A stretch of 50,198 bases of DNA from an uncultured Chthoniobacter sp. (GTDB lineage Bacteria; Verrucomicrobiota; Verrucomicrobiia; Chthoniobacterales; JACTMZ01): NCBI GenBank assembly GCA_964545425.1, contig CAZJGQ010000002.1, forward strand, positions 1 through 50,198, written 5' to 3'. Below are positions 5,159-21,367 of this stretch, one piece after another (the stretch's first letter is position 1; each line of letters starts with the position of its first letter). Under the pieces are notes generated by a model, which was not told where the DNA came from, searched no databases, and worked only from the letters and a program-made list of their open reading frames with translations. The position numbers were made by a program, and so were the translations under genes.

Positions 5159-5482
5159 ATGAAAAAACACCAACATACCTACGCAATCGCCTGCTCTTGG
5201 GCGGACGCCAAGTGCGCATCCACCAACGGCAGCATCAACACCACTGTCAACGCGGCTCATGACGCGGAGGCATTCATCGATCTGGAGACCAAAAAAAATC
5301 CCGTTCTTTCGATCGTGATCCATGCCGCCGATAAAAGCGGTTCTCACATGGTCTGCGCCGACTATGGAAACGGTAAACTCTTGATGGATGTAGCGGCACA
5401 CGACGCCAGCGAACTTCGCTACGCCCTCGATCGTGTCACGGCTCCCTGGTTCACCGGCTCGGACGAGCCGCTTGCCGCCTGA
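5159..5482 (+). CDS. hypothetical protein
   Basis: 107 aa, ATG start, lies in the tightly packed same-strand array. No motif recognised. Confidence 0.45.
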   Translation: MKKHQHTYAIACSWADAKCASTNGSINTTVNAAHDAEAFIDLETKKNPVLSIVIHAADKSGSHMVCADYGNGKLLMDVAAHDASELRYALDRVTAPWFTGSDEPLAA

Positions 5483-5498
5483 TCCGGAGGAAATACCA

Positions 5499-6608
5499 AT
5501 GAACGAAAATATCGTCTGCCCCCAATGCCAAGCCGAGTTTCCCCTCGGCGAAGCCGTCGCCCATCGTCTTCGCGAGCAACTCGCCGCCGACTTCGAAAAG
5601 GAGCGCGCCAAGCTCAAACAAGCCGGCGCCCGCGAAGCCGCGGAGCAACTCTCGGTGCAAATGAAGGATCTTCAGTCGCAAATCGAGGCGCAAAAAAACC
5701 GCCTCAAAGCCGCCGAAGACAACGAACTCGAATTGCGCAAACAAAAGCGCGAGTTGCAGGACGCGAAAGACGCCATGCAGCTCGAGGTCGAACGCAAGCT
5801 TGAAGCCGAGCGCGCCAAGATCGCTGAAAACGCACGCAAGAACGCCGAGGAAAACGAGAAGCTCAAGCTCCTCGATAAAGAAAATAAAATCAAACAACTC
5901 ACCGAGCAGATCGATATCCTGCAAAAGAAAGCCGCGCAAGGCTCCATGCAGGCGCAGGGCGAAACGCTCGAACTTGAACTCGAGCGCGAATTGAAGGCAG
6001 CCTTCATCCACGATGAAATCGTCGAGGTGAAGAAAGGCGAGCGCGGGGCCGACGTTCGTCAGGCAATTCGCACCAACACCGGTGGCGCCTGCGGCGAGAT
6101 CCTCTGGGAAACCAAGCGCGCCAACGCCTGGAGCGCCAAGTGGATCGCCAAGATCAAAGAAGATCAACGCCACGTCAAAGCCGACCTCGCCGTCATTGTC
6201 ACGACGTGCCCGCCCGACGGCTTGCGTGGTTTCGGTGCGCACGAAGGCGTATGGGTCTGCGAGCCCGGCTATGCCGTGGCCCTCGCCGCCGCTTTGCGTC
6301 AGGGAATCGTCAGCACTGCCGCCCAACGCGTGCAACAAGCCAATCGCGCCGACAACATGTCCATGCTCTACGACTACTTGTGCGGCGTGGAATTCCGCCA
6401 GCATATCGAGGCGCTCGTCGAAACCTTCGTCGCCGCCAAGAAACAAATCGAAAGCGAACGTAAAGCCTTCCACAAAGCGTGGGCCGAACGCGAATCGCAA
6501 CTCACCAAAGCGGTCACTCACACGGCCCTCATTTACGGCGGTATCCAAGGCATCGCCGGTCGCGAGGCTCTGCCCGAGATCGACAGCCTTGCCCTCACCG
6601 CCGCCTAG
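5499..6608 (+). CDS. DUF2130-like protein (Zn-ribbon, long coiled coil, C-terminal nuclease-like domain)
   Basis: ATG at 5499 is preceded by GGAGG. N-terminus is MNENIVCPQCQAEF, followed by a K/E-rich coiled coil. C-terminus is GERGADVRQAI..GEILWETKRANAWSAKWIAKIKEDQ. Confidence 0.75.
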   Translation: MNENIVCPQCQAEFPLGEAVAHRLREQLAADFEKERAKLKQAGAREAAEQLSVQMKDLQSQIEAQKNRLKAAEDNELELRKQKRELQDAKDAMQLEVERKLEAERAKIAENARKNAEENEKLKLLDKENKIKQLTEQIDILQKKAAQGSMQAQGETLELELERELKAAFIHDEIVEVKKGERGADVRQAIRTNTGGACGEILWETKRANAWSAKWIAKIKEDQRHVKADLAVIVTTCPPDGLRGFGAHEGVWVCEPGYAVALAAALRQGIVSTAAQRVQQANRADNMSMLYDYLCGVEFRQHIEALVETFVAAKKQIESERKAFHKAWAERESQLTKAVTHTALIYGGIQGIAGREALPEIDSLALTAA

Positions 6609-6622
6609 AAAGAAACGACACC

Positions 6623-7414
6623 ATGGCTAAAAAGAAACTCAACAAAACGGTAGAAATCCTCGACGCGGCCGCCGCTGTTCTCGCGGCCACCGGCACGCCG
6701 ATGCACTACACCGACCTCGCCGCCGCCGTCGGCGAGCACGACAACTCGATCGTCTTCGGGGCCAAACCCGGACTCGAGGTATACACCGCCATCTACAATG
6801 ACATCAAAGCTGCCCCCGCGTCGCGCTTCGCCAAAGCCGGGAGAGGGGAGTTCTTCCTCTCCGGTGTCGAACCTGCCGAGGAAACGACAGCGGATGCGCC
6901 CGGCGTGCCTTCCCACGCTGCCGGTTTCATCCAGGCCTTCGGCATGTATTGGCAGAGGAATCAGGTCGATTGGAAGAACCAGCCTTCGCTGCACGGCAAC
7001 CAGCAACGCGGTGCGCAGAACGTCGACTTCGGCGGACAAAAAGGTGTCTACCTTCTGCACGATGGACGCCACGTCGTCTACGTCGGACGCACCACGGATC
7101 AGACCATGGGCCAACGCCTCTTCCAGCACACCTATGATCGGCTCAACGGCCGCTGGGATCGCTTCTCTTGGTTCGGCGTCTTGCCCGTGAATGAAGACGG
7201 TTCGCTCGGCCAAGCCGCCGGGGCCGGCTTCGGCATCGACGACCTCATCTCGGCCATGGAGGCCCTGCTTATCGAGGCCGTCGAGCCGCCGCAGAATCGT
7301 CGTCGCGGCGACCAGACCGCCGCGGTCGAATACCTCCAGGCCGAGGACCCGGCCTTGAAAAACAAACAAGCCAAAGCCCTTGTCTCCGAGGTTCTGGCCA
7401 AACTAGAAAGATGA
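6623..7414 (+). CDS. HARE-HTH domain protein with a C-terminal GIY-YIG-like nuclease module
   Basis: N-terminus ILDAAAAVLAATGTPMHYTDLAAAV..EVYTAIYNDIK..RFAKAGRGEFFL is HARE-HTH-like. C-terminus GVYLLHDGRHVVYVGRT..RLFQH..EALLIEAVEPPQNRR is GIY-YIG-like. Confidence 0.7.
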   Translation: MAKKKLNKTVEILDAAAAVLAATGTPMHYTDLAAAVGEHDNSIVFGAKPGLEVYTAIYNDIKAAPASRFAKAGRGEFFLSGVEPAEETTADAPGVPSHAAGFIQAFGMYWQRNQVDWKNQPSLHGNQQRGAQNVDFGGQKGVYLLHDGRHVVYVGRTTDQTMGQRLFQHTYDRLNGRWDRFSWFGVLPVNEDGSLGQAAGAGFGIDDLISAMEALLIEAVEPPQNRRRGDQTAAVEYLQAEDPALKNKQAKALVSEVLAKLER

Positions 7415-7421
7415 TTCCCCC

Positions 7422-8639
7422 ATGCCCCTCGACATCCAGCTAGTTCACCCTTTCGACAAGGCGCACGAGCATCATATGTGGGAGTCGCTTTGCGAGTCCA
7501 TGTTTGCCGCTTTCAAAGACCTTCCCGGCAAGGCCCTTCTGCTCGGCAATTTTAACTGCGGCCGCCAGATCGACGCCTGTCTCGTCACGGGTCGCGGTCT
7601 TGCGGTGATCGAACTCAAGAACTACTCCGGCCAGCTTCACGCTCCGCCCAACGAGCGATGGTTCGCGGGCACCAGCCCGGTGCACGCGGGCGGCGCGCTC
7701 AATCCTTTGGAGCAAATGCGCGGTGCCAAACATGCCATCGTCGATCGTTTGCGTCGTCCTTGGTCGTACAAGTTTCCCGACATGCCGCCGCCCAACTGGA
7801 AATACTCGGCCTGCCGCGCGGTATTCAACCCGGGAACCGAATGGGTCGATCTGCTCGATCCCGGCGTGCACCGTTGGTTCAAGATCTCGACCCTCGACGC
7901 CATCGCGTCCGAACTGCGCTCGCTGTCCATCGACACCTTCGACCTGTCCGCGGCCCAGATCGATTTCGTTCGCAAGACCATCCTCTCCATTGCGCCGCGC
8001 CGCATCGTGCACAAAGAGCAGAAAGAAATCATGGCAAACGGATTGCAGGGCATCACCGTCGGCCACCTCACGCTCGGGTCCAAGGTGGCCGTCACCCACG
8101 GCACAGCGGCGAGCATGGACAAACAAAACAAAAATCCCGTCCCTGCCGTCTTCCATGATTACACGGTGGCCGATGAGGATGGCTTCGTGCTTCACCTCAA
8201 AGACATGTGTCTGGAAAACGGTGAGCGCCACATTTTTGCCGGCGACAATTTCAGCGGCGAAAAAAAGTGGGACCGTCTCCAAGAGGGGATGCGTCTCGGT
8301 GTTTACCCTCGCGACGGCGGCGTCCTCACAAGGCTCGCCCTGGCCCGTCCCAATGAAGGAAAGGGCAAGAAGAGCACCCGTGGTCGCTCGGCCACCCGCG
8401 AGCAACTGGACGAGGCGGCGGGTCTCGACGTCTTCCAGACTCTTCTTGATCTGGGCGCCCTCAAGGTGGGCACACGAGCCGAGGTTTACGGAGAGACCAA
8501 CAGAGAACGCAACACGCTTTGCGTTCTCTACCCCACAGACAAACCCGAGATCGGCCTCGTGGCCTACATCCTCACCACCATCTTCCCGCTCATGCAAGAC
8601 GAGGAAGAGGAGTCCGGTGTGCAAACGGCCGCCGCCTGA
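7422..8639 (+). CDS. NERD domain protein
   Basis: 405 aa. LLLGNFNCGRQIDACLVTGRGLAVIELKNYSG..NPLEQMRGAKHAIVDRL. Confidence 0.75.
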   Translation: MPLDIQLVHPFDKAHEHHMWESLCESMFAAFKDLPGKALLLGNFNCGRQIDACLVTGRGLAVIELKNYSGQLHAPPNERWFAGTSPVHAGGALNPLEQMRGAKHAIVDRLRRPWSYKFPDMPPPNWKYSACRAVFNPGTEWVDLLDPGVHRWFKISTLDAIASELRSLSIDTFDLSAAQIDFVRKTILSIAPRRIVHKEQKEIMANGLQGITVGHLTLGSKVAVTHGTAASMDKQNKNPVPAVFHDYTVADEDGFVLHLKDMCLENGERHIFAGDNFSGEKKWDRLQEGMRLGVYPRDGGVLTRLALARPNEGKGKKSTRGRSATREQLDEAAGLDVFQTLLDLGALKVGTRAEVYGETNRERNTLCVLYPTDKPEIGLVAYILTTIFPLMQDEEEESGVQTAAA

Positions 8640-8651
8640 TCCGCCGCACTT

Positions 8652-8894
8652 ATGAACTCCGAAACCAAAGTTATCTTTTCGACCAAAGGCCAGGTCATCA
8701 TCCCGAAGAAAATCCGCACCAAACTCGGGATCGAGGAAGGAACCGAAGCCCTTGTCACCGAGGAGAATGGCCGGATTTGTTTGCAGCCGATCAATGCGGC
8801 CTACATCGCCGGATTGCGCGGCCGGCTTGGCGGTGTCGAACTCGTCGAGACCCTCGAGGCCGAACGCGCCAAGGAAAGGAAACCCGGCGCATGA
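8652..8894 (+). CDS. AbrB/MazE/SpoVT-family antitoxin
   Basis: 80 aa. STKGQVIIPKKIRTKLGIEEGTEALV is a swapped-hairpin motif. The stop overlaps the next ATG (ATGA). Confidence 0.85.
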   Translation: MNSETKVIFSTKGQVIIPKKIRTKLGIEEGTEALVTEENGRICLQPINAAYIAGLRGRLGGVELVETLEAERAKERKPGA

Positions 8895-9334
8895 AGGGCA
8901 ACCGGGTCTTGGACACGTGGGCACTGCTCGCCTTCTTTCAGGGGCACGGCAGTGCCGCCGCACAGGTCGAGAAAATCCTCAACTCCGCACTCGGCTCGAA
9001 CCGTCGCGTCTTTTTGCACGGTGTAAGCTGGACAGAGCTCTACGCCACGATCGAGGGCAAGCTGGGCGACCCTGCGGCCGCGGAGGCGGTGGCTGTCCTC
9101 GATCGTCTTCCCATCGTCCTTGTCGGCACGGAGGACCGCGAGGTCTGCCGCCAAGCCGCCTGGCACAAAACGGCGTTCGATCTCACCCTCGGCGCCAGCT
9201 TTGCCGCCGGCTTGGCCGCAGTGAAAAAAGCGCCCCTAGTGACCGGAGACCCCCAGTTTCTTCGCCTGGCCGGTGATATGACACTCCACTGGCTTGGCGA
9301 TCCGGCGCTCGTGGCTGAAAATTCCCCGCAATGA
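8891..9334 (+). CDS. PIN-domain toxin (VapC-like)
   Basis: ATG at 8891. RVLDTWALLAFF..SWTELY..GASFAAGLAAVKKAPLVTGDPQF. The stop overlaps the ATG of the DUF262 gene (ATGA at 9331-9334). Confidence 0.75.
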   Translation: MKGNRVLDTWALLAFFQGHGSAAAQVEKILNSALGSNRRVFLHGVSWTELYATIEGKLGDPAAAEAVAVLDRLPIVLVGTEDREVCRQAAWHKTAFDLTLGASFAAGLAAVKKAPLVTGDPQFLRLAGDMTLHWLGDPALVAENSPQ

Positions 9335-10953
9335 CCGCCGCCCTCAAACAACCCGAGAACCACTCGAAGAAATACTCGGTGCTCTTTGCCGATATCGACG
9401 CGGGGCGCACAAAGTTGCCCCGATTTCAACGTGACTTCGTCTGGGACAAGGCGCAGACCGCCAAGCTCATCGACAGCATCTTGAAGGGTTTTCCGGTCGG
9501 CACTTTCATCATCTGGAAGACGCGCGACCGCTTCCGCCATTTCCGCGAGCTGGGCAACTTGCCTCTTCCCGAGCCGCCGGCGGGGGACTCTGTGCAATAT
9601 GTCCTCGACGGCCAGCAGCGCATCACTTCCCTCTACGCCGTGCGCAAAGGCCTGCGCATCACCCGCGACGGCCGCGTCATCGACTACAAGGACATCTGCA
9701 TCGACCTCGACGCCCCCGGCGGTCCGGAAGAGGAAATCGTCCACGCCGACGCCCCGGCCGGCCGCCGCACAATCTCGGTGCACGACCTGCTCTCGATGGA
9801 TGTCACCGACTTCGACGCCTACAGCAAAGCCGAGCGCCGCAAAATCCACGAATACCGCGCCGCGCTCACCGGCCACGACTTCTCCGTCATCGAGATCCCC
9901 GAATACGACATCGACACCGCCTGCGAGATTTTCACCCGCATCAATACCGGCGGCAAAGAGCTGTCGCTCTTCGAAATCATGGTCGCCAAGACCTTCGACC
10001 CGGAATCCGGTTTCGATCTCGAGCGCAAATACCTCGATCTGGTCGACGGCGATGACGGCGGCAAGAGTCTCATCGACGCCAGCTTCGAGACCATTCCCGC
10101 CATCACTATCCTGCAGTGTATCGCTGCCCACCTCAAAGGCGGCATCCGCCACGGCGACATCCTGCGCCTCGACCGCCAGGCCGTCATCGAGTGCTGGCCT
10201 CATGTGAAAGAGACCATCTTTGCCGCCATCGACCACATGCAGTCCCATCTGGGCGTCGCCGTCTCCCGCATCCTCCCGTATCCGGTGCTGCTCGTCGCCT
10301 TCAGCAACTTCTTCGACCGCAACAAGCTCAAGCCGGCCGGCCACGACCAGACCCGCTACCTCGCCGAATATTTTTATCGCGCGGGACTCAGCAACCGCTA
10401 CACGTCTGGCGTCGCTGTCAAAATGGTCGCCGATTTGCAGAAGATGAAGTCCATCGCCCAGGGGAAACGTCCATCCTACAAAGGGGAGGATCTCGAGATT
10501 ACCCCCGACACCTTCCGGACAAAGACCTTCGCCATCAACGACGCCTTCTCCAAGACCGTCCTGTGTCTGCTTGCTGCGAAAGGTCCGCGCAATCTGCAGA
10601 CCAACGGCCTCATCAAGCTCAACAACTCCTGGCTGCGCAAATCCTCCAGCCGCAACATCCATCACATATTCCCGAAGGCATGGATCAAGAAGCACGGCAA
10701 ACCTGACTGGGATGCCAATGTTATCGCGAACATCATGATCGCTGACGAATATTTGAACCAAAGAGTGATCAAGGCGTCTGCACCAAAGGATTGGGTAGGC
10801 CAATTCTCGCATAAGAGCGCGACTCTCGAGGAAAGTTTCCTCACACACCTGATTGGAAGCGAGGAACTGGAGGCGTTGCGGAGCAACTCCTACCCCAGGT
10901 TCGTAGCAGCACGTTCTAAAGCTTTTTTCGAAGCGATAGCGATCGCTCTCTAA
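9331..10953 (+). CDS. DUF262 (ParB-like nuclease) plus DUF1524 (HNH-like) protein, GmrSD/SspE/BrxU-like architecture
   Basis: N-terminus LPRFQRDFVWDKAQTAKLIDSILKGFPVGTFIIW..YVLDGQQRITSL. C-terminus NIHHIFPKAWIKK. Confidence 0.85.
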   Translation: MTAALKQPENHSKKYSVLFADIDAGRTKLPRFQRDFVWDKAQTAKLIDSILKGFPVGTFIIWKTRDRFRHFRELGNLPLPEPPAGDSVQYVLDGQQRITSLYAVRKGLRITRDGRVIDYKDICIDLDAPGGPEEEIVHADAPAGRRTISVHDLLSMDVTDFDAYSKAERRKIHEYRAALTGHDFSVIEIPEYDIDTACEIFTRINTGGKELSLFEIMVAKTFDPESGFDLERKYLDLVDGDDGGKSLIDASFETIPAITILQCIAAHLKGGIRHGDILRLDRQAVIECWPHVKETIFAAIDHMQSHLGVAVSRILPYPVLLVAFSNFFDRNKLKPAGHDQTRYLAEYFYRAGLSNRYTSGVAVKMVADLQKMKSIAQGKRPSYKGEDLEITPDTFRTKTFAINDAFSKTVLCLLAAKGPRNLQTNGLIKLNNSWLRKSSSRNIHHIFPKAWIKKHGKPDWDANVIANIMIADEYLNQRVIKASAPKDWVGQFSHKSATLEESFLTHLIGSEELEALRSNSYPRFVAARSKAFFEAIAIAL

Positions 10954-10958
10954 AAAGT

Positions 10959-13406
10959 ATGCACATGAGCAAACGTTTATCGGGCGGAAATTACAGGGGC
11001 AGACGTCACTCAAGTGCACCAAGTAGTCCGGCTGAAGATCGTATTTTTATACCAATGGCAGAACGTGGTAGGTCGGTAGCTTCTGTTGCGCTATCGGTTC
11101 GCTTGAGCAACGTCTTGGAAAAAGGAAATATCCGAATTTTAGGGGACTTAAATGGACTCAACTTTAAGGACATAATCAGATATACTAACTGCGGGCAAAA
11201 AACGGCAAGTGAACTACGAGAAGTAGTCCGGAAAGTGCAACAAGGAACTACCGAGACTATGCCAAGCCTTGCTGCTGTTGAGCCTGCAAATGAGTTAGCT
11301 TTTCGCGTTCCGTTATCGGCACGAAAGTTTCTTTTGTCTGATCTACCAATTTCCTCCCGTCTCGAAACAGTTTTGCGGCGCTGCGGGTTCAGCAAACTAG
11401 GCGACATCGACGGTGTTGAATTCAACTACTTGCTTCGTCGCCAGGGTTGCGGAAAGAAATGCATCCAGGAACTACAGGAACTACTCAAGCGATCTGGTTC
11501 AGGTGAATTCACACCGGTAGATACCGCCGATTTTTCCGCTGTTCTCCAACAGGTTGCCGCTTCTATTGATTCCGGTTTAGCCAAACTTGCGCACAGAGAC
11601 AGGGAGATATTTGAATCACGTATAAGTGGGAACAATGGCGGCCCACGAACGCTAGAGGAAATTGCACAGGAATTTGCCATGACGCGAGAACGCGTCCGTC
11701 AGATAACGAAAAAGAGCTTTCAGACAATCCGGCGGAGCGGTGGCCTGAAGCTGAAAAGTGCCTTGCAGTCCTTAGTTAGAGAATGCGAGCAGTGCGTCTG
11801 CCCTTTGACACCAGATTTGTTCACGAAATGGACGGGGCCAACGGTTGCCAGCAAGCATGACTCTCATTTTTATGTCCGGGTGCTCGACACGATGGACGCA
11901 TCCGTGCCCGCGTGGCCTGGCGGCTCAACACGCGAAGGGGGAGATGAAAGTCGGTCGCTAGAAATTCAAACTGCCGTCGAATTGTGGATGCGGAAAACAG
12001 GAATGAACCCAACTGCATCCGAAGCCTACTCTTACCTGAGGAAGCATTCGGCTTTTAGAAAGCTGTCTGTTGCAGCATTTCTGGCTGCAATTCGCGTTCC
12101 CAAACGATTCATCATTGATTTCCCCGAGCCTGACCGTCCGCAGTTCCGGTTGCGTCGTTTACGTATTTCAGATTTCGCGCGACCGATCTTAGAGGCAAGT
12201 GATGTGCCGCTGACGCCTGAGGAAATTATTGAGCGCGCCAAAGCTCGATATGGGCACAGTTTGATTATACATGCAGGTCGCAGTGCAGGTAATGCCTTGC
12301 TGGGCGAAGAGGGGATATACCTGCTGGGACCCCGAGCACTGGGCATGCGAAAGCACTTTAAGACCCCAGCCAAAGTGTGGCCCTCACTTCGAAAAATCTT
12401 CGCAAACACACTAAAGATACAAAACCGTCCGGTTTCGACGACCGAAGCTGTTTGCCTCCCTGAAATAGCGCGCTTCCACATTACAAATGCTCACGAGATG
12501 GCTGCCATTCTCAGGGAGGACAAACGATTTGTGGACCTTGGTCGGCACCTCTTCGGACTCGCCAAATGGGGCTTACAAGAACGCGAGCATATTAAAGACC
12601 TTTTACCGGGTGTTTTCGAACAGGCGAAGCGAGTGCTCAAGATCGATCAGGCTTTGGAAAAGCTGACGCGCCTGCGTTCAGTTTCACCGAGCAGCATTGC
12701 GAACTACCTCAAGAATCACCCTGAGATCCGTTCCTTTGGCTTCGGATACTATGGCCTCACGAAATGGGGGAACGAAGAGCGATCCGTCATTTTAGCAGAC
12801 CGGAAGACAGTAGAACGAGCAATCCGCCGGGGGCCGCAGCCCATCAGTTTCCAAGCATTGTGCCAAACTTTTTCAATCAATGTGTCCGGCAGGCAGGCGG
12901 ATCTCTTATGGAAAAGCTGTCAGGGGTCCCCTAAGTTGCGTCGAGCCCCCGACAAGCAGGCTCCCGACACGCTTCTGCTGCACAAATCTGTTTCGCTTGA
13001 GCAATCGCTGGCCAACATCTCGCGCGATTTAAAACGGCCAATGGCAGCGTATGAGTTGGAGTGGGAACTGAGGTCGAGATACGGCGATCTTTTCGCCTCG
13101 ATAGGACTTAAAGAAATCGAGCAGAAACTTGCAAAAAGCGATTGGTTCCTGCGTGACTCCGCCGGCCAATTCTTTTTGGACGAAGACTTCAACAACGAAG
13201 ACTTTAATCCTGAAGCTATCCGAGCTGCCGTCACAAATTCGCTTATTGAATCAATGGATGTCGCGGGATGTGATGAGCTGATTGAGAGACTCGAGTTATC
13301 TGGCTTTGAGGTGGACGATTTGTCCCAAGACATGCTAGCATCAATTCTTCGCGGAGCAGCCGGTCTTCAAGAAGTTGCGAATCAGAGATTCCGTGCACGC
13401 CAATGA
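10959..13406 (+). CDS. RNAP-module mimic: two alpha-CTD-like HhH modules, sigma-70 region-4 HTH and repeated winged-helix (HARE-HTH-like) modules
   Basis: LSVRLSNVLEKGNIRILGDL..NCGQKTASELREVV and ISSRLETVLRRCGFSKLGDI..GCGKKCIQELQELL are alpha-CTD-like. TLEEIAQEFAMTRERVRQITKKSFQTIRR is sigma region 4.2-like. Four or more ..GLAKWG/GLTKWG-type wH repeats follow. The start could be a downstream Met. Confidence 0.8.
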   Translation: MHMSKRLSGGNYRGRRHSSAPSSPAEDRIFIPMAERGRSVASVALSVRLSNVLEKGNIRILGDLNGLNFKDIIRYTNCGQKTASELREVVRKVQQGTTETMPSLAAVEPANELAFRVPLSARKFLLSDLPISSRLETVLRRCGFSKLGDIDGVEFNYLLRRQGCGKKCIQELQELLKRSGSGEFTPVDTADFSAVLQQVAASIDSGLAKLAHRDREIFESRISGNNGGPRTLEEIAQEFAMTRERVRQITKKSFQTIRRSGGLKLKSALQSLVRECEQCVCPLTPDLFTKWTGPTVASKHDSHFYVRVLDTMDASVPAWPGGSTREGGDESRSLEIQTAVELWMRKTGMNPTASEAYSYLRKHSAFRKLSVAAFLAAIRVPKRFIIDFPEPDRPQFRLRRLRISDFARPILEASDVPLTPEEIIERAKARYGHSLIIHAGRSAGNALLGEEGIYLLGPRALGMRKHFKTPAKVWPSLRKIFANTLKIQNRPVSTTEAVCLPEIARFHITNAHEMAAILREDKRFVDLGRHLFGLAKWGLQEREHIKDLLPGVFEQAKRVLKIDQALEKLTRLRSVSPSSIANYLKNHPEIRSFGFGYYGLTKWGNEERSVILADRKTVERAIRRGPQPISFQALCQTFSINVSGRQADLLWKSCQGSPKLRRAPDKQAPDTLLLHKSVSLEQSLANISRDLKRPMAAYELEWELRSRYGDLFASIGLKEIEQKLAKSDWFLRDSAGQFFLDEDFNNEDFNPEAIRAAVTNSLIESMDVAGCDELIERLELSGFEVDDLSQDMLASILRGAAGLQEVANQRFRARQ

Positions 13407-13984
13407 AAGCTGTAACCAAACCCGAGAAAATCCTGGTGGTTATGTTTGACCTGTCAAAAGGAGAACCGAAGCCACTGCTTTACGAAGATATAGTTGTTGC
13501 GGCTTTCAGGCGGTATCCCGAAGATTTTCAGCTTCGTGGATATCCGGAATACCCGGATTCGTCTGATATCCACAAGCCCCTGTACAAAATGAAGCGCAAC
13601 GGATTGGTTCGTTCCGCGAACAAATCCTTCATGCTGACTCCAATGGGAATCGGTGTTGCTCAGGGCTTGGTAGGCGCATCGGAACCGACCGGCAACCGCT
13701 TGACCAAACCCGAAGAGAATGAGATTAACCGCATTTCTCAATCTCAGGCATTCCGGCTCTTTCAGGAGGGCCACAAGTCCAAAATCCTCGATACCGATTT
13801 CTACGACTACCTGGGAGTGAGCGTGCGGACGCCAAAAGGAGATTTCCTGGGTCGTGTTGCCACTGTTAGCCAGGCGGTGGAGGCCCATGGTGCTAAGCGC
13901 AACGACAAACTTTCAGAGGCCCTCGCCAGATTGCACGAGTGGATCCTCGGCCACTTTCAGGAAGAAATTCAAGCTAGGAGATAA
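13403..13984 (+). CDS. hypothetical protein (possible winged helix)
   Basis: 193 aa. ATGA overlap with the upstream stop; ends 2 nt before the next ATG. Confidence 0.55.
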   Translation: MKAVTKPEKILVVMFDLSKGEPKPLLYEDIVVAAFRRYPEDFQLRGYPEYPDSSDIHKPLYKMKRNGLVRSANKSFMLTPMGIGVAQGLVGASEPTGNRLTKPEENEINRISQSQAFRLFQEGHKSKILDTDFYDYLGVSVRTPKGDFLGRVATVSQAVEAHGAKRNDKLSEALARLHEWILGHFQEEIQARR

Positions 13985-13986
13985 CC

Positions 13987-15768
13987 ATGCCAATTAAAGT
14001 TCAACCTTTCGTCATAGACGTAGCCGTTCTCGACCTTATCGGTAAGGAGTTTCGTTTCGACCACGCCAAAGGCCTCGCGGAGTGGCTCAAAAACTCGAGT
14101 GACGCATATTTGCGTCAAAGCGTGCCGGATGCTGATCAGCACATCATTGTGCGGTTCTGTGAGGCTGGTAGGGCACTCACGCGGATTGAATGCATCGATT
14201 TCGTCGGCATGAAGAAAAGCCACATTGACGATGCACTCAAGCGATTCTTCGATCCCGAAGCTGCCAAGAAGGGTTCCAAACAAGCCAATCTGAAAACACT
14301 AGGTGGCCATGGAAACGGAGGGAAGTTTTACATGCGCCAAATGTTTAAGTCCTCTAAGGCCATGACATATCGAGATGGCCGCATGAACATTTTTGGCTTC
14401 AACGAAAAGAAGCAATACGGCTTCGAAGAGGGCTTTGAAGATAAAAAAATGCCCCTAGCTGACGCGCTGAAACTGGCTGGCCTTGACAAGCTCAAACTTC
14501 CGAAAGGCGTGCTCGACCAATTGAAGGCAGGGGAAACCGGCTTCACTGTGATTGTCGGCGACAAGCCGGTGAAAACTAAAGGCACCAGCAGCCTAAAGGA
14601 GCTTTGCGACAAACTTATTTCGCATCCACAAGCTAGGAGACTTATTGGCCGAAAGCCTGTGCACGTCCTTTGTAATGAGGAATCCGAACTGACGAGGTTA
14701 ACAGTTCCCAAACTTGAGCCGAAAGAGGGATTCGAGCAGCCAATCGTTATTGAGATCCCCAGCGAATTGAATCACCAAGGCGAGACAGTTCACTTCGTGA
14801 ACAAGGATTACTCGTATCCCGGCCGTCTTGTCCTTAAAACGTCCAAGGAACCGCTGCGTGCGGCCTTGGGATCACTCAATACGATCGACTTCTTAGGCGA
14901 GGTAGGTGTCATCGGCACTTATAAAATCCATGAATTGGGCGCTACACGTTTTTCCGGACAGGTTGAATTCATCTACGGCGAGTGTGAGTGCCCTATCTTG
15001 GAAGATCCTGAACACGACTCAGTCGCTAACGACCGGCAAAAACTCCATCCCACTGATCGTGCACAAGCTTTGCTCGAATGGGTTCGAGAACAGGTGGAAG
15101 AACTTGCGGAGAAAATGGAGACAAAGAACAAGCAGGACAGCAAGTCGCAAGATCTGAAGAATACCTCGGCATTAAATGAGCTGCTAAACCGTTGGAAAGA
15201 CAGGTTCATGAATCAGGTCTGGGCTGATATGTTTTCCGGCCAGGGGCCCTCTGGCACCTCGGGCAGCGGAGGCAGTGGAGGAGGAGGCGGTGGTGGCGGC
15301 GGTGGCGGTGGAGGTGGAGGCGGTGGAGGCGGCGGCGAGGAAGGCGGCAGCGATAAAATCAAAAAACCGAGATTTCCTCAGGTGCTCATTTCGGGCCAGG
15401 ACAATGATCCGCTGGACCCGATGGCCACGATTCCGTTTAATTGCGATCCACGCCATCCGGCGGTGTATCAGCGCACGAAAGACGTCGCCGCCGGCATCTA
15501 TTGGATCAATACTTCCAGACCTCTTGCTGAAAAGGTCATCAAAGAATACACGGCCGATTCAGCACGTTGGCGGGAATATCTTTTTCAGCGCTACGTGGAG
15601 ATCATCTCAAAGGAAGGCATTTACCAGCTGGGTAAATTGAACACGACACTGTCGGCTGATGACGTAATTCGCCGCATTGATGAGGTCACCACCAAAGTTC
15701 ACGATCAGGCAGCTCAAGATCTGAGCTCCTTTTTGTTCCAAGAGTCTCTTCAGGCGGATGCTCGATGA
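13987..15768 (+). CDS. GHKL (Bergerat-fold, MORC/MutL-like) ATPase with an internal poly-Gly linker
   Basis: N-box GLAEWLKNSSDAY, G1-like IDFVGM, G2-like LGGHGNGGKFYM. AGGAG lies 8 nt upstream of the ATG. A C-terminal domain follows the Gly tract. Confidence 0.75.
   Translation: MPIKVQPFVIDVAVLDLIGKEFRFDHAKGLAEWLKNSSDAYLRQSVPDADQHIIVRFCEAGRALTRIECIDFVGMKKSHIDDALKRFFDPEAAKKGSKQANLKTLGGHGNGGKFYMRQMFKSSKAMTYRDGRMNIFGFNEKKQYGFEEGFEDKKMPLADALKLAGLDKLKLPKGVLDQLKAGETGFTVIVGDKPVKTKGTSSLKELCDKLISHPQARRLIGRKPVHVLCNEESELTRLTVPKLEPKEGFEQPIVIEIPSELNHQGETVHFVNKDYSYPGRLVLKTSKEPLRAALGSLNTIDFLGEVGVIGTYKIHELGATRFSGQVEFIYGECECPILEDPEHDSVANDRQKLHPTDRAQALLEWVREQVEELAEKMETKNKQDSKSQDLKNTSALNELLNRWKDRFMNQVWADMFSGQGPSGTSGSGGSGGGGGGGGGGGGGGGGGGGGEEGGSDKIKKPRFPQVLISGQDNDPLDPMATIPFNCDPRHPAVYQRTKDVAAGIYWINTSRPLAEKVIKEYTADSARWREYLFQRYVEIISKEGIYQLGKLNTTLSADDVIRRIDEVTTKVHDQAAQDLSSFLFQESLQADAR
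15263..15350 (+). repeat. Imperfect GGN trinucleotide tract encoding SGSGGSGGGGGGGGGGGGGGGGGGGGEEGGS
   Basis: Read directly from the sequence; mixed GGA/GGC/GGT codons. Confidence 0.9.
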
Positions 15769-16919
15769 CCAAGGAGTTTTCGGTAGTCGATTTATTTGCA
15801 GGCGTTGGCGGATTTTCCCAGGGATTTATCCGTGTAAATCGAAGGAATTTGGACTTTGGTTTCGCGTTGAAGCTACTGGTCGATTCCGACCCGACAGCTG
15901 GATACACATTTAAGAAAAACTTCCCGCGCGTTCCGTATTGGACAAAAGACATTGGCAAGTTGACCGCGGACGAACTTCTCGGCGTCCTGAAAATGCAGGT
16001 TGGTGAGCTGGATTTTTTGATTGGTGGGCCTCCGTGCCAGGGCTTTTCCCCAAACGGCAAAAGATGGTTGGAAGACGAGCGCAACACGCTTTTCTCGCAG
16101 TTTATAAATCTGGGCCTGTTTTTGCAGCCGAAGGTTGTGATTTTGGAAAATGTGCCTGCTGCTCTGGCTGTTTATGAAACAATTGCTAACAGTCAGATCC
16201 AGGAGGTATTCCGAGGCTATAATGTTCGCTCCGAAACGTTAAACGCTACTGCTTTTGGAGTTCCCCAAATTCGTAAACGCACATTTATCGTCGCTATCCG
16301 CGAGGACCTCGGTATTAATGAGTTTGATTACCCTGCCGGAAAGTTTGACCCGCTCGAGGTCGGTTGCGAATCACATAACATCTCAAGAGCGGATCATTAT
16401 TTCGTGTCGGTCCGCGATGCAATCGGTGACCTCCCGTCGCTGTCAGCCGGCCAATCAGTTGATGGCTCTTTATACGCAGTCGCTCCTCAGTCCGAATATC
16501 AAACCGAGAGGCGCGCAAGATCCCTGGCAATCTTTAATCACGTGGCTCGGTCGCATTCCGAGAAATTCCAGAGGAAGCTTTCATCCATCCGCCCAGGCAC
16601 GGGCAATGCCCACTTACCAAAAGGTGAGAGGTTCTCGGATAACTACTTTAGCCAAGCATATGCTCGTTTGCACCCTGAAGGTGTTGGCTTCACCATAACA
16701 GCCAATTTTCGTAATCCTGGATCGGGTCGTTTTACTCACTATCAGGATGATCGCTCTATTACAGTCCGCGAAGCGGCACGACTCCAGTCATTCGACGATG
16801 CGTTTATTTTTTATGGCTACGAAACCGATCAGCAGCGCCATGTAGGAAACGCTGTCCCGCCACTCTTGGCTGAAGCGCTCGCGGAGCACTTCGGCAAAGT
16901 GTTATATTCTCATCTTTGA
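15765..16919 (+). CDS. dcm: DNA (cytosine-5)-methyltransferase
   Basis: Motif I DLFAGVGGFSQGF, motif IV GGPPCQGFS, ENV, QIRKRTFIV, TVREAARLQSFDD, GNAVPPLLAEAL. ATGA overlap with the GHKL gene. Confidence 0.95.
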   Translation: MTKEFSVVDLFAGVGGFSQGFIRVNRRNLDFGFALKLLVDSDPTAGYTFKKNFPRVPYWTKDIGKLTADELLGVLKMQVGELDFLIGGPPCQGFSPNGKRWLEDERNTLFSQFINLGLFLQPKVVILENVPAALAVYETIANSQIQEVFRGYNVRSETLNATAFGVPQIRKRTFIVAIREDLGINEFDYPAGKFDPLEVGCESHNISRADHYFVSVRDAIGDLPSLSAGQSVDGSLYAVAPQSEYQTERRARSLAIFNHVARSHSEKFQRKLSSIRPGTGNAHLPKGERFSDNYFSQAYARLHPEGVGFTITANFRNPGSGRFTHYQDDRSITVREAARLQSFDDAFIFYGYETDQQRHVGNAVPPLLAEALAEHFGKVLYSHL

Positions 16920-16925
16920 TTGCCA

Positions 16926-19010
16926 TCAAATGGGCCACTCGGAACAATGCTCGGCACCGAGATCCGCGGCGCCGCACTCAATTAAAAACTGGTAAGTGGT
17001 GTCGTAAAATTCGGGAGCTCTGGTCTCATCCTCTCCACTTCGGCTGCCCCTCGGCACAAATATTACCAAGCCTTTGCGCGCTCTCGTAAGTATCACTCGA
17101 TAGCCGTTTTTAGCCACCTTGCACAGCTTGTCATTCGCCCATTTGGACCCGCTGATTTTGTAAGCTTTCCATTCACCGTTTTCGTAACGCAGATCTGCAT
17201 CCCAGCAGACTATGCAGAAGTCCAGCTCCAGGCCCTGCACCTGGTATTGGTTCTGCACAACCTCCAGAGCGTTGGATGATCTGATGTCGCTTGTCGGTGC
17301 TAACATCCAGGTTGCGATGTCCGGCTTGAAATCAACAAAGAGCCCCTCAGCGGCCAAGCGTTTCGCCTGACCCGATGCAATTATACCCGAGCGCAGACCT
17401 CCAACGCAGTTGTTTCGCGCCCACTCCTTGGCAGTCGATAGCGATCTTGTTATCCATACGGTATGACCCTTCTGCCGCATTTCCGCAGCGATGTCTTTGG
17501 CGTCTTTCGATCTGCAAGAAAGAACGGCATCTACCCACTCTTCGAGTCGCTCATTCCTGTAGTAGCGCATAGAACTCGATAAGTGACCCGTTCGCATAAG
17601 GCTCCGCGTGGGGTGCTTTTCCCACTTTGAGCGATCAGTTATCTCAGCCAGAGCGAGGGTTTCGTCACTGATTGAAAAGGACCATCCCTTGCGCTCGATC
17701 GCCTCAAGCCACGCCCGGATCCCCATCTCACCGCGGTTGATGGCTTGATTGTGCCCGACTAAAGCCACGATCACCGATCCGCCTGAGGGGAATGAGCGGC
17801 GCTGTGCTTCCAATATCAGGTCTGCTTCGTGGTCGCTGAGTTGCTCGCGAAGGACTACCCGCCCTTTCTCGTATGTGCGTTGAGCTTCGTCAAAGACGAG
17901 CACGCGCCCGTCAGTTTGTTCGTGCTGAGTGCCACGCTGGCCAAGGAAGCGATGCGCCTTGACCAGTTTATAAGTCGAGGCACCAACCACCAGTGCAGCG
18001 TCTTTTCGGCGGTAGCCTGTTGGAGCCCATTTGCTCTGAGAGGCACTTTGTGAACGAAATGATCCGTGCAGAGCCTTCGTCAAAACATCAACCAACGGTG
18101 TATTTCCAGTGACGAACACCGCATTTGAAGCGTGTTCGCCACGCATCACAAGATCCAGTCCAACAAGCGTTTTGCCGGCGCCTGGCGCACCGGACAGAAA
18201 TACAACACGGTATTCACCTTTCTTTAGAGACCCATCAATAATTCTCCGTATCTCATTGGTCGCGCTTTGAATCTGCTCCTTCGGGGCAGCATGCTCTTGG
18301 ATTGCGGAGACATCATGATTTCCGTAGAGCGATAGAGTTGCATCCAGAATCGAAGACGATGGCCTAAAAGGGGAAGCCATCCATCGATCAAAACTGATGA
18401 CTTTGCTGGAGCGGCGTTTTTCGCGCGCCAATTTCAAAGCTTCAGCCAAACTGTGGCCGTCGCACTCTAGAGGGGCATTTACCAGGGCATTCCAGCTTCT
18501 GTCGCCGTGCCCGGGCCATTCCAAGCGTCTGCGATGCTTGCCCTCCGTCTGAACAAGAACGGGAACAACAAGAACTCCTGCGTCACCATCGCAAATGCGC
18601 TGCGTCTCCTCGTGAAACTCCAGAAGGTTGACAGCGTAGGTCATCACCTGATCACGGTCTGCCCCCTGTGGTTTGTTTCGTTTGAATTCCGTGACGAAGA
18701 TTAATCCATCTCCTAGCAGAAGGCAGTCCATCCGTAGGCCGCGCCGACGAAAGTCGTATTCTAAAATAACATGCGTGATGCCTTTGCCGGCCTCGGTTGC
18801 GAGTGCCTCCCGGAGGATCGGTATGCGGTTGCCCAGTGCGTTCTGCAAAAGGCCAATACTTTTTTTCCATTCCTCACTTTGTGCGGCCTCAATTTCGAGG
18901 CTCTCGGATGCCGCTCTTCCAGCAAGCTGGTTTGTGATCGCCTCATCCGACAGAGCGAGGAAGGCTTCTCGGGTATCCGCAAACCAAGCTGGGGACTTTC
19001 CTCTCGGCAT
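16926..19010 (-). CDS. DUF2075/Schlafen-like P-loop ATPase-helicase with an N-terminal PD-(D/E)xK-like module
   Basis: VILEYDF..RMDCLLLGDGLIFVTEFK is nuclease-like. Walker A is LSGAPGAGKT, Walker B is VLVFDEAQR, and the C-terminus is YRVILTRARKGLVIFVP. Confidence 0.8.
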   Translation of the reverse strand: MPRGKSPAWFADTREAFLALSDEAITNQLAGRAASESLEIEAAQSEEWKKSIGLLQNALGNRIPILREALATEAGKGITHVILEYDFRRRGLRMDCLLLGDGLIFVTEFKRNKPQGADRDQVMTYAVNLLEFHEETQRICDGDAGVLVVPVLVQTEGKHRRRLEWPGHGDRSWNALVNAPLECDGHSLAEALKLAREKRRSSKVISFDRWMASPFRPSSSILDATLSLYGNHDVSAIQEHAAPKEQIQSATNEIRRIIDGSLKKGEYRVVFLSGAPGAGKTLVGLDLVMRGEHASNAVFVTGNTPLVDVLTKALHGSFRSQSASQSKWAPTGYRRKDAALVVGASTYKLVKAHRFLGQRGTQHEQTDGRVLVFDEAQRTYEKGRVVLREQLSDHEADLILEAQRRSFPSGGSVIVALVGHNQAINRGEMGIRAWLEAIERKGWSFSISDETLALAEITDRSKWEKHPTRSLMRTGHLSSSMRYYRNERLEEWVDAVLSCRSKDAKDIAAEMRQKGHTVWITRSLSTAKEWARNNCVGGLRSGIIASGQAKRLAAEGLFVDFKPDIATWMLAPTSDIRSSNALEVVQNQYQVQGLELDFCIVCWDADLRYENGEWKAYKISGSKWANDKLCKVAKNGYRVILTRARKGLVIFVPRGSRSGEDETRAPEFYDTTYQFLIECGAADLGAEHCSEWPI

Positions 19011-19058: not shown

Positions 19059-19469
19059 ATGACAGATATCTGGACCAAAAAGAAGCGCTCCGAAGGCATG
19101 TCCCTCATCCGGGGCAAGGGCAACAAGGAGACGGAGAATGCGCTACTCGCGCTGCTGAGGCAAAACAAGATCATCGGCTGGAGAAGGCATCTTCCTTTGC
19201 CCGGAAAGCCCGACTTTGCCTTTCCCAGTCACAAAGTCGCCGTCTTCGTCGACGGTTGCTTCTGGCACGGCTGCCCCAAGTGCTACACCCGCCCGAAAAC
19301 CAACCGGAAGTTCTGGGACAAAAAGCGCGCTGACAACATGGCTCGCGATCTCCGCGTCACCCGCAAACTCCGCCGCCAAGGCTGGAAAGTCATCCGCATC
19401 TGGCAACACTCCCTCCAAAAATCGCCCTCCACCTGCCTCAATCGAATCCGCCACACGCTACAGGTCTAG
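19059..19469 (+). CDS. vsr: Very-short-patch repair endonuclease
   Basis: The internal ATG at 19059 gives 136 aa: KPDFAFPSHKVAVFVDGCFWHGCPKCY..NRKFWDKK..RD..L..GWKVIRIWQH. Confidence 0.9.
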   Translation: MTDIWTKKKRSEGMSLIRGKGNKETENALLALLRQNKIIGWRRHLPLPGKPDFAFPSHKVAVFVDGCFWHGCPKCYTRPKTNRKFWDKKRADNMARDLRVTRKLRRQGWKVIRIWQHSLQKSPSTCLNRIRHTLQV

Positions 19470-19963: not shown

Positions 19964-21367
19964 ATGCCTAGCCTGATACCCGATCCCAACACCCGGCCAT
20001 TTCCCCGCGCAGTATTTCTAGACAGTTTGGCCATCTCGACCAAAGGCGGTCGGGTCCACAAACTCGAGCGGGATGTGCTTTTTCCGCGCTTGCGGAAATT
20101 GGATCGAGCCAATGCCCGGCACACCATGGGGGCGATCGACGCCATCATGGACAACCTCGGCATGCTCTTCGCCGAGCAATTCGCGTCGGGCGAATACGAA
20201 GACTACCTGCTGAAAGTCAGCGATATCCGGGCGCTCTATCAGCGAGCCACGCAAGTAGTGATCGACGAGTTCCCATGGACTGGTGACTACCTGCTCAAGG
20301 GTGCTCGCATGGCCAGATCGGGAGAGCCGCGCCCCTTTCTTCGCTTGCTCGGAAGCACGGAGCTTAACCAGGCAGCTCTAGCTCACAAACTTTGGGGTCC
20401 GGGATTTTCCGAAGAAGATTCCGTTGGCCCCGGTAGTTGGCGACTCGATCCATATTCGAACTTGGTTTGGGACGGTATCTGGCCGCGCGGTTACTCGGCA
20501 CCCGACGAACCCGGCAGCAGAGTAATTCCCTCGCTGCCGACCGGACTAAATCCTCCCGATGGCTTCGCGCCCACCGTGCCGGAACTTCGCTTGCTTTCGC
20601 CGGATCAAGCGACTCCCGATCTGCCGCTGCGTGTCGGGATAACGGAGGAAGATTTGGACATCTACGCCGGCAGTGCGATCGACCAGGGAGCATACGGCAC
20701 CTGCTTGGCCTGCGCCACGGCGATGGGGCTCAATGTCGCCTGCCAACGGGTGGGAAAACTGGAAGACGTGGAAGGCGGATTCAGTGCGGCTTGGATTCAC
20801 TGCGACAGCGCGATGCCGGGCCAGGATTGGTCGAGTGGAAGAGATCTTCCTCGAGCCTGCGAAAGCGTGCGCCGTGGACTTCCTTGCTCTGCTCGGGCTT
20901 TTCCCTACCACCCGGTGGCTGCCGATGAGGAGTGGAAGACTGCGGCGCGAATCGATGATGCCGCACGCATCGAGCGTTCGGTTGGCCGGCCGATGATCGT
21001 GGACATCGATTGCCACGACATCGCCCACATGAAGACGCTGCTCGCTTCGGGTTGGGTCATCGTTACCGGTGCTGCCTTCCAGCAGAAGTGGCAGCACAGC
21101 GACATCTTTCGCAACTTCGGCACACCGCTCGCTCCGCTCCCCGGTGAGAAGCGTGATGGCGGCCACGCATGGTTGCTGGTCGGCTACGATCATGTCGATG
21201 GCAACAACCAATGGAAATACCAAGGGCGCTTCTACTGCCTTAATTCCTGGGGCCCGTCCTATCCGCGTGAACAAACTCACGGCCCCGCCATCTTCACCCT
21301 GCCATTCTCCTTCTTCCTGACCGAAGGCTACCGCCAAGGCGGCTTCGCCATACGTTTCCCCATGTAG
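19964..21367 (+). CDS. Papain-like (C1 family) cysteine peptidase with an unknown ~220-aa N-terminal region
   Basis: IDQGAYGTCLACA has the Gln-to-Cys spacing of papain. GGHAWLLVGYD supplies the His and CLNSWGPSY the Asn-Ser-Trp-Gly motif. Confidence 0.8.
   Translation: MPSLIPDPNTRPFPRAVFLDSLAISTKGGRVHKLERDVLFPRLRKLDRANARHTMGAIDAIMDNLGMLFAEQFASGEYEDYLLKVSDIRALYQRATQVVIDEFPWTGDYLLKGARMARSGEPRPFLRLLGSTELNQAALAHKLWGPGFSEEDSVGPGSWRLDPYSNLVWDGIWPRGYSAPDEPGSRVIPSLPTGLNPPDGFAPTVPELRLLSPDQATPDLPLRVGITEEDLDIYAGSAIDQGAYGTCLACATAMGLNVACQRVGKLEDVEGGFSAAWIHCDSAMPGQDWSSGRDLPRACESVRRGLPCSARAFPYHPVAADEEWKTAARIDDAARIERSVGRPMIVDIDCHDIAHMKTLLASGWVIVTGAAFQQKWQHSDIFRNFGTPLAPLPGEKRDGGHAWLLVGYDHVDGNNQWKYQGRFYCLNSWGPSYPREQTHGPAIFTLPFSFFLTEGYRQGGFAIRFPM

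Follow-up and report, generated by a model that had tools for sequence, protein, structure and literature searches.

The gene described here lies in a 50,198-nucleotide stretch of DNA, referred to below as the window, that comprises positions 1 to 50,198 of contig CAZJGQ010000002.1 (assembly GCA_964545425.1) from an uncultured Chthoniobacter sp. of the phylum Verrucomicrobiota. It is an open reading frame (ORF) of 815 amino acids (aa) at 10959..13406 on the forward strand, encoding a protein that consists of two modules of the type found at the C-terminus of the RNA polymerase (RNAP) alpha subunit (alpha-CTD), a sigma-70 region 4 (sigma4), a helical linker and seven winged helices. The ORF is the first of a cassette of four forward-strand genes, in which it is followed by the gene for a 193-aa protein (13403..13984) and, immediately downstream of the latter, by the gene for a 593-aa protein with a GHKL+S5 ATPase module (13987..15768), whereas the last place is taken by a C-5 cytosine DNA methyltransferase of the Dcm type (15765..16919; Pfam PF00145, E-value 8e-59). 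The joints between these genes are either 4-bp ATGA overlaps, one of which joins the 815-aa ORF to the 193-aa gene and another the 593-aa gene to Dcm, or a 2-bp gap. The GC content at third codon positions (GC3) is 0.50-0.57 throughout the cassette, as opposed to 0.75-0.79 in the flanks (0.79 in the gene for a GmrSD nuclease, 0.75 in a NERD-domain gene and 0.77 in the gene for a Vsr endonuclease), a contrast that identifies the cassette as a distinct horizontal acquisition. The same gene order, namely the sigma4 protein, the ~193-aa protein, the ~593-aa protein, Dcm and, often, Vsr, is found around homologues of the 815-aa protein that are 71%, 50%, 48% and 33% identical to it.

The first alpha-CTD module (residues 38-95; 11070..11243, forward strand) carries the conserved motif discussed below and matches the RNA_pol_A_CTD family (PF03118) over residues 38-90 with an E-value of 3e-11 and a score of 43 bits, against a cutoff of 23.8; when compared with PDB sequences, it retrieves RNAP alpha subunits only, with generic helix-hairpin-helix (HhH) proteins (DNA ligases) first appearing at E-values above 0.6. 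The second module (residues ~122-180; 11322..11498, forward strand) scores 17 bits, below the Pfam cutoff for the same family, and, with 31% identity and an E-value of 1e-13, is clearly paralogous to the first. Sigma region 4 (4.1-4.2; residues 192-262; 11532..11744, forward strand), with the recognition helix TRERVRQI, matches Sigma70_r4 (PF04545) over residues 207-258 with an E-value of 4e-11, well above the curated cutoff, and the top PDB sequence matches of the entire protein are to region 4 of SigA/RpoD, with TLEEIAQEFAMTRERVRQI as the aligned segment. An AlphaFold2 (AF2) model built on 29 homologues, with a mean predicted local distance difference test (pLDDT) score of 84, was compared with known structures using Foldseek and superposed on solved sigma region 4 with template modeling (TM) scores of 0.74-0.83, root mean square deviations of 1.6-1.9 A and 34-38% identity. 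A TM score of 0.72 was obtained with the alpha-CTD of Caulobacter in complex with AT-rich DNA. An initial annotation of the locus, made from the letters alone, had described a pair of alpha-CTD-like modules followed by a sigma-70 region 4-like helix-turn-helix (HTH), and both assignments are borne out by these searches. The possibility that the modules are generic HhH and HTH domains, which the same annotation had named as an outcome that would overturn it, is excluded, given that the Pfam, PDB sequence and Foldseek results are all specific for alpha-CTD and sigma region 4.

No Pfam match to Sigma70_r2 or Sigma70_r3 was obtained for the 815-aa protein at an E-value of 0.01 or below, and neither is found among the 25 families listed of the 33 that are matched by 29 family members at E-values of 0.1 or below. 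A true sigma factor of the sigma-70 family is ruled out, region 4 (a 4.2 HTH with the −35-recognition residues) being present without region 2 or 3. The N-terminal dimerization and assembly domain of the alpha subunit likewise gave no Pfam match in the 815-aa protein, which contains the C-terminal domain alone, in two copies. Sigma4 is followed by a family-specific helical linker (residues 263-332; 11745..11954, forward strand), which includes a long helix running on from sigma4. The start codon of the ORF is ambiguous, with M1, M3 and M33 all possible, and residues 1-25 are disordered in the model; the long form is backed by homologues, including one (P0002) that covers the 815 aa in full (100%) with 87% identity. 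An automatic gene call differs from the ORF at 10959-11259: it yields a protein of 715 aa that starts at M101 and would remove the first alpha-CTD module.

The remainder of the protein, residues 333-815 (11955..13403, forward strand), is an array of seven winged-helix (wH) units, delineated from AF2 secondary structure, Foldseek, hhalign and Pfam, each of which consists of three helices and a hairpin in the model: wH1 (333-400), wH2 (401-466), wH3 (467-540), wH4 (541-606), wH5 (607-678), wH6 (679-744) and wH7 (745-815). The initial annotation had counted at least four repeats ending in G(L/Y)xKWG and compared them to HARE-HTH domains. The literal motif occurs only twice, at residues 533 and 599, but the repeated winged helices themselves are there, and the annotation had understated their number. 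The resemblance to HARE-HTH is seen at the level of profiles and of the family: wH2, wH3, wH4 and wH7 are mutually related (hhalign probabilities of 80-97%) and of the HARE-HTH type, and 18 of the 29 family members match HARE-HTH (PF05066), with a best E-value of 1.5e-11, whereas the protein encoded in the window is itself sub-threshold (14.4 bits, residues ~518-537). Foldseek also pairs the model with tandem winged-helix proteins, such as the C-terminus of SelB.

The 193-aa protein has no significant match in Pfam or the PDB, profile searches included, and yields only weak winged-helix hints in profile searches of the PDB and Pfam and in hhalign comparisons with the winged-helix units. The 593-aa protein has no Pfam match, and the PDB sequence search produced only artefacts, that is, spurious matches to engineered linkers caused by its poly-Gly run. 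This run of ~22 glycines (residues ~428-450; ~15270-15340) links the GHKL+S5 part to the C-terminal domain, and homologues have a variable Gly/Ser/Lys-rich linker of similar length. The AF2 model of the 593-aa protein (pLDDT 79) was matched by Foldseek to the GHKL+S5 modules of MORC2, MORC3 and Hsp90, with E-values of 1e-9 to 1e-10, and the Bergerat motifs ExxxNxxD, DxxG and GGHGNGGK are invariant across the family. The model NF050001 (BbrUII/HgiDII) is weakly matched by 6 of 22 family members, with a best E-value of 1.3e-5 and a score of 18.6 bits against a cutoff of 550. Judging from the predicted structure, the 593-aa protein is a GHKL ATPase of the MORC/Hsp90 type, distantly related to R.HgiDII/BbrUII, and its C-terminal domain is a candidate nuclease. 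For the 193-aa and 593-aa proteins as a pair, we found no description in Pfam, PADLOC or the literature.

The initial annotation had placed the 815-aa protein next to a GHKL ATPase and a nuclease. The former is confirmed by the predicted structure; the latter is a genuine gene that lies outside the cassette. This gene, which encodes a GmrSD_N nuclease (9331-10953; Pfam), is located upstream of the 815-aa ORF, has the high GC3 (0.79) of the flanks rather than that of the cassette (0.50-0.57), and is present in one homologous locus alone (L049), there in a downstream position. It is ruled out as the nuclease of the system: not being conserved at homologous loci, it is a neighboring gene of the island and a separate acquisition, and the cassette is a unit of its own.

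To put the cassette in a broader context, we fetched 80 genomic loci with members of the 593-aa family, which comprises more than 1000 clusters, across many phyla and examined every ORF in them. In 76 of the 80 loci, the 593-aa gene has the 193-aa gene immediately before it, and the pair is found in Verrucomicrobiota, Acidobacteriota, Planctomycetota, Myxococcota, Ignavibacteria, Nitrospirota, Actinomycetota and many lineages of the Candidate Phyla Radiation (CPR). This pair is the core of the system. Dcm was detected in 55 of the 80 loci and Vsr in 38, and a sigma4-containing gene is part of the operon in approximately 63, located upstream in 20 cases, directly downstream in 34, divergently in two and after Dcm/Vsr in three, with four further cases recognized by Pfam, by alpha-CTD matches or at a contig edge. 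Sigma4 is the constant part of this third component, and its other heads vary, from zero to four alpha-CTDs and from zero to seven winged helices. In some CPR and other lineages, DnaA domain IV, GyrA C-terminal beta-propeller repeats with HhH, or Mor-like HTH heads replace the alpha-CTD or are added to it (L062:2967-5432, L069:12031-13146, L071:12077-13150 and L064:6783-7730); at these loci, the sigma4 proteins with alternative heads are encoded downstream of the GHKL gene. Delimited at E-values of 1e-30 or below, the full family comes to 495 clusters (50% identity) in a set of 1.84 billion representatives.

Conservation in both alpha-CTD modules is highest at the arginine of S-V-R-x-x-N and in the hairpin N-C-G-x-K-T. 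The arginine is present in every family member that has an alpha-CTD module and the glycine is invariant or nearly so, with R134 and G165 of module 2 being invariant across the family. These motifs align with R265, N268, G296, K298 and S299 of the Escherichia coli alpha subunit, which form its DNA-binding '265 determinant'. The 4.2 motif T-R-E-R-V-R-Q-I, equivalent to sigma70 residues 583-590, which carry the −35 contacts, is invariant or near-invariant in the family, and near-invariant also in 62 third components from distant lineages, with the caveat that the hidden Markov model by which these were found rewards that very motif. Conservation does not extend to the surfaces through which alpha-CTD contacts activators and sigma: the 261 determinant, which is acidic, reads A-S-V-A in module 1, and the 287 determinant is altered as well.

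The components of the cassette evolve at different rates. In 12 of 14 loci compared with the window, homologues of the 815-aa protein are 31-46% identical to it, compared with 57-76% for the 193-aa protein, the 593-aa protein and Dcm, and in the closest of the 14 loci the respective values are 71% and 82-83%. The 815-aa protein is thus the fastest-evolving component, as expected for a specificity or interface subunit. Domain by domain, the divergence within its family is even (41-53% mean pairwise identity), and no head is hypervariable.

All heads of the third component belong to domains that bind double-stranded DNA, the conserved residues are those that contact DNA, and the gene is coupled to, and inherited together with, those for the GHKL ATPase and the methylase. 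Together, these observations lead us to favor, with what we judge to be an even chance of being right, the interpretation of the 815-aa protein as a modular DNA-reading and targeting subunit of a GHKL-type restriction-modification (R-M)-like system. The best explanation of the locus is a system of three proteins, in which the 593-aa MORC/HgiDII-like ATPase is joined by the 193-aa and sigma4 proteins, plus the Dcm methylase and, often, Vsr. In keeping with this assignment, modules of this kind accompany other modification-based systems, namely PglW, Dnd-linked restriction, a plasmid methyltransferase (MTase)-helicase-AAA cluster and MzaA. The initial annotation had entertained the possibility that the protein tethers the neighboring GHKL ATPase and nuclease to transcribing or modified DNA. 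The part concerning the ATPase is the one we favor, given the translational coupling, the co-occurrence in ~63 of 80 loci and the conservation of DNA-contact residues; the part concerning the nuclease is not, because GmrSD is separate.

Under the targeting interpretation, the two alpha-CTD heads would bind the A/T-rich minor groove and the sigma4 head a −35-like site in the major groove, whereas the seven winged helices, four of them HARE-HTH-like, would spread the protein over an extended length of duplex, the modification state of which they may also read. The DNA-bound protein would then load or position the 193/593 module, which is driven by ATP, on DNA without the Dcm mark; the methylase would protect self DNA and Vsr would repair the products of 5-methylcytosine (5mC) deamination. 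DNA binding, complex formation, a restriction or defense activity and the identity of the nuclease are all parts of this scheme that we infer.

Several observations weigh against a targeting subunit. No nuclease domain was identified in the four-gene cassette, and among PADLOC models there is no match for the 193-aa or the 593-aa protein, and the 815-aa protein matches only via short sigma4 and alpha-CTD segments. Approximately 11 loci with ample flanks contain 193+593+Dcm(-Vsr) and no sigma4 gene, so that the third subunit is dispensable for the core, and the position of the sigma4 gene varies (upstream, downstream and twice divergent), as is typical of regulators. A 937-aa relative (P0005) with the same architecture and 63% identity is encoded beside the TrwC relaxase and TraG-like coupling protein of conjugative elements, in loci that lack the 193-aa, 593-aa and Dcm genes. 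Shorter relatives, of 588 aa and ~475 aa, reside in ordinary chromosomal sites, and the existence of such stand-alone proteins implies that the scaffold can work by itself.

These relatives have some features of their own. The P0005 gene (10001-12814 in L001-L004) is followed by an overlapping 107-aa ORF, and its product could act in plasmid establishment or as an anti-defense protein. The abundant ~475-aa form consists of two alpha-CTDs, sigma4, the linker and wH1 and occupies a fixed chromosomal place after a DsbA-VKOR pair and a two-component system (L011:8001-9428 and L163:8001-9428); this conserved position suggests a housekeeping or regulatory role of the minimal scaffold.

The most substantial alternative, which we nonetheless consider rather unlikely, is that the 815-aa protein is an autonomous transcription factor, for example a controller of the R-M operon or of a mobile element, and not a stoichiometric subunit of an enzyme. 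Its sigma4, alpha-CTD and winged-helix domains would then serve to bind promoter-like DNA, so as to repress expression or set its timing. The relatives without enzyme genes in conjugative elements and chromosomal sites, the divergent orientation in two loci, the core without a sigma4 gene in ~11 loci and the name 'sigma factor-like helix-turn-helix DNA-binding protein', which NCBI gives to plasmid relatives, all suit such a role, as does the sigma4 recognition helix, which is near-identical to that of primary sigma factors; since the protein retains this helix along with the DNA determinants of alpha-CTD, its N-terminal third would be expected to bind UP-element/−35-like promoter DNA. The controller (C) proteins of R-M systems are Xre-type HTH dimers of ~80-100 aa with an operator upstream of their own gene. 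The 815-aa protein has no Xre-type HTH according to Pfam and, with 800-1000 aa and seven winged helices, this family far exceeds the known controllers, while the variants with a GyrA C-terminal beta-propeller look unlike regulators. The ATGA overlap with the next gene, seen in the window and in homologues, suggests through translational coupling that the two products are made in matched stoichiometry. Moreover, no promoter-like site was found before the 815-aa gene, which starts 5 bp past the upstream ORF, and the 250 bp upstream of 23 homologous genes, many of them coding, contain no conserved k-mer or shared motif and no enrichment of TTGACA; an autoregulatory operator thus finds no evidence in either place.

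Two further alternatives give the RNAP-derived modules a role in contacts with proteins. The initial annotation had raised the possibility of a decoy or sensor for phage proteins. As a decoy or guard, the 815-aa protein would present copies of the RNAP surfaces that phage takeover proteins bind or modify, and the capture of such a factor would switch on the GHKL module. The modules are true RNAP homologues, the arginines equivalent to R265 are kept family-wide, the protein evolves faster than its partners, as in an arms race, the variant heads (DnaA domain IV and the GyrA C-terminal domain) are likewise taken from essential host machines, and phages encode small stand-alone alpha-CTD-like and sigma4-like proteins. 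Yet what the alpha-CTD modules have lost are the 261 and 287 surfaces for protein contacts, and what they have kept is the DNA-binding determinant; divergence is uniform (41-53%) and there is no hypervariable head; the seven winged helices would be left without a role; and there is no known phage partner. The swappable heads have DNA binding in common, not a known phage effector, so that the replacement of alpha-CTD by DnaA domain IV or the GyrA C-terminal domain fits interchangeable DNA binders better than an RNAP mimic. With the idea gaining no support from these comparisons, we regard it as very unlikely. Still more improbable, in our estimate, is a tether to RNAP itself, in which sigma4 would dock on the beta-flap of the core enzyme and either couple restriction to transcribing RNAP or block sigma. 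Sigma4 is indeed the sole domain found in every third component and superposes closely on region 4 from the holoenzyme and from sigma4/beta-flap chimeras, but sigma regions 2 and 3 were not found, so that the affinity for core RNAP would be weak, the conserved positions belong to the DNA-recognition helix, and DNA rather than the polymerase is the likelier partner in view of the winged-helix array and of the heads derived from DnaA and GyrA.

A more specific and decidedly speculative proposal, which we think unlikely to hold, takes the succession of two alpha-CTDs and sigma4 as a single-chain copy of the part of the holoenzyme that reads the UP element and the −35 hexamer, with the recognition residues exact. 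Such a triad would steer methylation-sensitive GHKL restriction to promoter DNA, and the variants with DnaA domain IV would steer it to origin-like DNA, or else the same heads would bait phage anti-RNAP proteins. If promoter reading proved true, immunity would be directed at essential cis-regulatory elements that invaders cannot mutate away, a new mode of recognition.

For the targeting subunit that we favor, the literature offers several partial parallels. The mzaABCDE genes have been described as a validated anti-phage system, with mzaA as a sigma factor (PMC9523054). Like the 815-aa protein, MzaA is large, resembles the sigma-70 family and shares a defense operon with a GHKL ATPase, of the MutL/MORC type in its case, and the best NCBIfam and PADLOC matches of the 815-aa protein are to the C-terminal sigma4 region of MzaA. 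The similarity is, however, confined to ~90-100 residues. Membership in the MzaA family is rejected because the match is local and far below the cutoff (43.4 bits with NF041931, an equivalog model with a cutoff of 800, of whose 726 positions only 613-704 are covered; 20 bits with the PADLOC MzaA model). As for the partner genes of MZA, MzaB-E (MutL-like, Z1, AIPR and others), there is no Z1 or AIPR in the cassette, and none of the Mza models is matched by the 193-aa or the 593-aa protein.

A second parallel is PglW, the C-terminal half of which is reported to contain an alpha-CTD-like domain followed by three winged HTH domains and to serve as a nucleic acid-binding segment of a methylation-based defense protein; a sigma-like HTH has also been reported in BrxL (PMC12839542). 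Positions 797-947 of the PADLOC PglW profile align to residues 30-253 of the 815-aa protein, weakly, with 16 bits. In PglW, a single polypeptide also includes a NERD nuclease, kinase domains and a STAND ATPase that is inactive, whereas the 815-aa protein is a separate subunit without an enzymatic domain. Given this 16-bit local match and the lack of kinase and STAND domains in Pfam searches, we reject membership in PglW/BREX type 2. Among the relatives of the 815-aa protein, P0032 adjoins BREX genes and a plasmid-encoded 437-aa alpha-CTD-sigma4 protein closes an MTase-helicase-AAA cluster.

In Ruegeria, plasmid pTHAF33_d encodes a 1026-aa protein (WP_152460869) that, like the 815-aa protein, combines alpha-CTD-like HhH modules, three in this case, with sigma4 (TRERIRQI) and winged helices. 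The protein is named by automatic annotation only; its gene lies downstream of dndBCDE and overlaps the start of a gene for a 'DNA phosphorothioation system restriction enzyme'. The two proteins are ~27% identical over the alpha-CTD/sigma4 part, and the partners differ, with other enzymes and phosphorothioate modification taking the place of 5mC. HARE-HTH domains have been proposed to recognize DNA with modified bases, and a sigma-related HTH has been noticed in some DndH proteins (PMC10853773). Restriction enzymes with an N-terminal HARE-HTH and the RNAP delta subunit RpoE show related winged helices, the former in restriction contexts, but there the domain is usually present once and fused to a nuclease, whereas the 815-aa protein has seven units, four of them detectably related, and no nuclease.

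The 593-aa protein has its own counterparts. R.HgiDII, a characterized restriction enzyme, has a GHKL domain at its N-terminus and, at the other end, a domain that is unassigned (PMC2441816), and neighborhoods combining paraMORC, Dcm and Vsr have been predicted to be R-M systems (PMC2292703). R.HgiDII/BbrUII and paraMORC resemble the 593-aa protein in the GHKL N-terminal part, the unassigned C-terminal domain, the 5mC methylase as a neighbor and, often, Vsr; the descriptions (PMC2441816, PMC2292703) make no mention of sigma4, alpha-CTD or 193-aa partners. With a GHKL+S5 ATPase that has intact ATP-binding motifs, a DNA methylase and, often, Vsr, the cassette has the composition of the paraMORC/GHKL type of R-M system.

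The unusual logic of sensing that the initial annotation had seen in the 815-aa protein is, accordingly, less unusual than it seemed, with PglW, MzaA and the 1026-aa Dnd-linked protein as precedents. Because each type of domain has already been seen in modification-based defense, and sigma-like proteins accompany GHKL ATPases in MZA, the cassette does not constitute a new category. What is new is the system built on the 193+593 core, its usual third subunit, in which two alpha-CTDs and sigma4 are combined with seven winged helices in one chimeric protein, and the strict retention of the promoter-recognition residues; a literature search by domain name returned no description of the combination of alpha-CTD, sigma4 and HARE-HTH. 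The 193+593 pair represents a large and taxonomically broad family that resembles an R-M system driven by a MORC-like ATPase, and the target of the 815-aa protein would show how GHKL/MORC-type systems find theirs, which bears on MZA, on R.HgiDII-type enzymes and, by analogy, on eukaryotic MORCs.

A phage origin of the 815-aa protein was also considered and finds no support. In a scan of IMG/VR, the sigma4-only matches are phage sigma factors and no viral contig carries the full architecture, and no protein of this architecture was found among the viral structures of BFVD.

The cassette is embedded in a defense island of ~23 kb, on a chromosome of ~62-64% GC, that adjoins recC-recB-recD and also includes two NERD-domain proteins and a DUF2130 protein (for these and the rec genes jointly, 1254-2132, 7422-8639, 5433-6608 and 26224-34768). 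Between Dcm and Vsr lies, in convergent orientation, the gene for a helicase of the Schlafen group 3 type (16926-19010, reverse strand; Pfam E-value 4e-53), which is a full-length match to the PADLOC candidate PDC-S41 (E-value 1e-166). The Vsr very-short-patch endonuclease gene (19059..19469, forward strand; PF03852, E-value 7e-17) is thereby parted from Dcm, to which Vsr is functionally linked in many homologous loci, and is host-like in composition. It may be a host gene or part of another insertion. Further downstream, two ORFs of 467 aa each (19964-21367 and 21402-22805) have no Pfam matches.

On the other side, the island encodes a second HARE-HTH protein (6479-7414; Pfam, 28 bits on residues 61-128), the C-terminal half of which has no Pfam match and contains a segment, 'GVYLL...VYVGRT', that by eye resembles the motif of GIY-YIG nucleases. 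Upstream of the 815-aa gene, positions 8652-9334 are occupied by a pair consisting of a MazE/AbrB-type antitoxin and a PIN toxin. Several loci that are unrelated to one another (L005, L033, L037, L038, L042 and L080) likewise have a PIN/VapC gene just upstream of the gene for the sigma4 protein, which may reflect a recurrent association or a common insertion hotspot.

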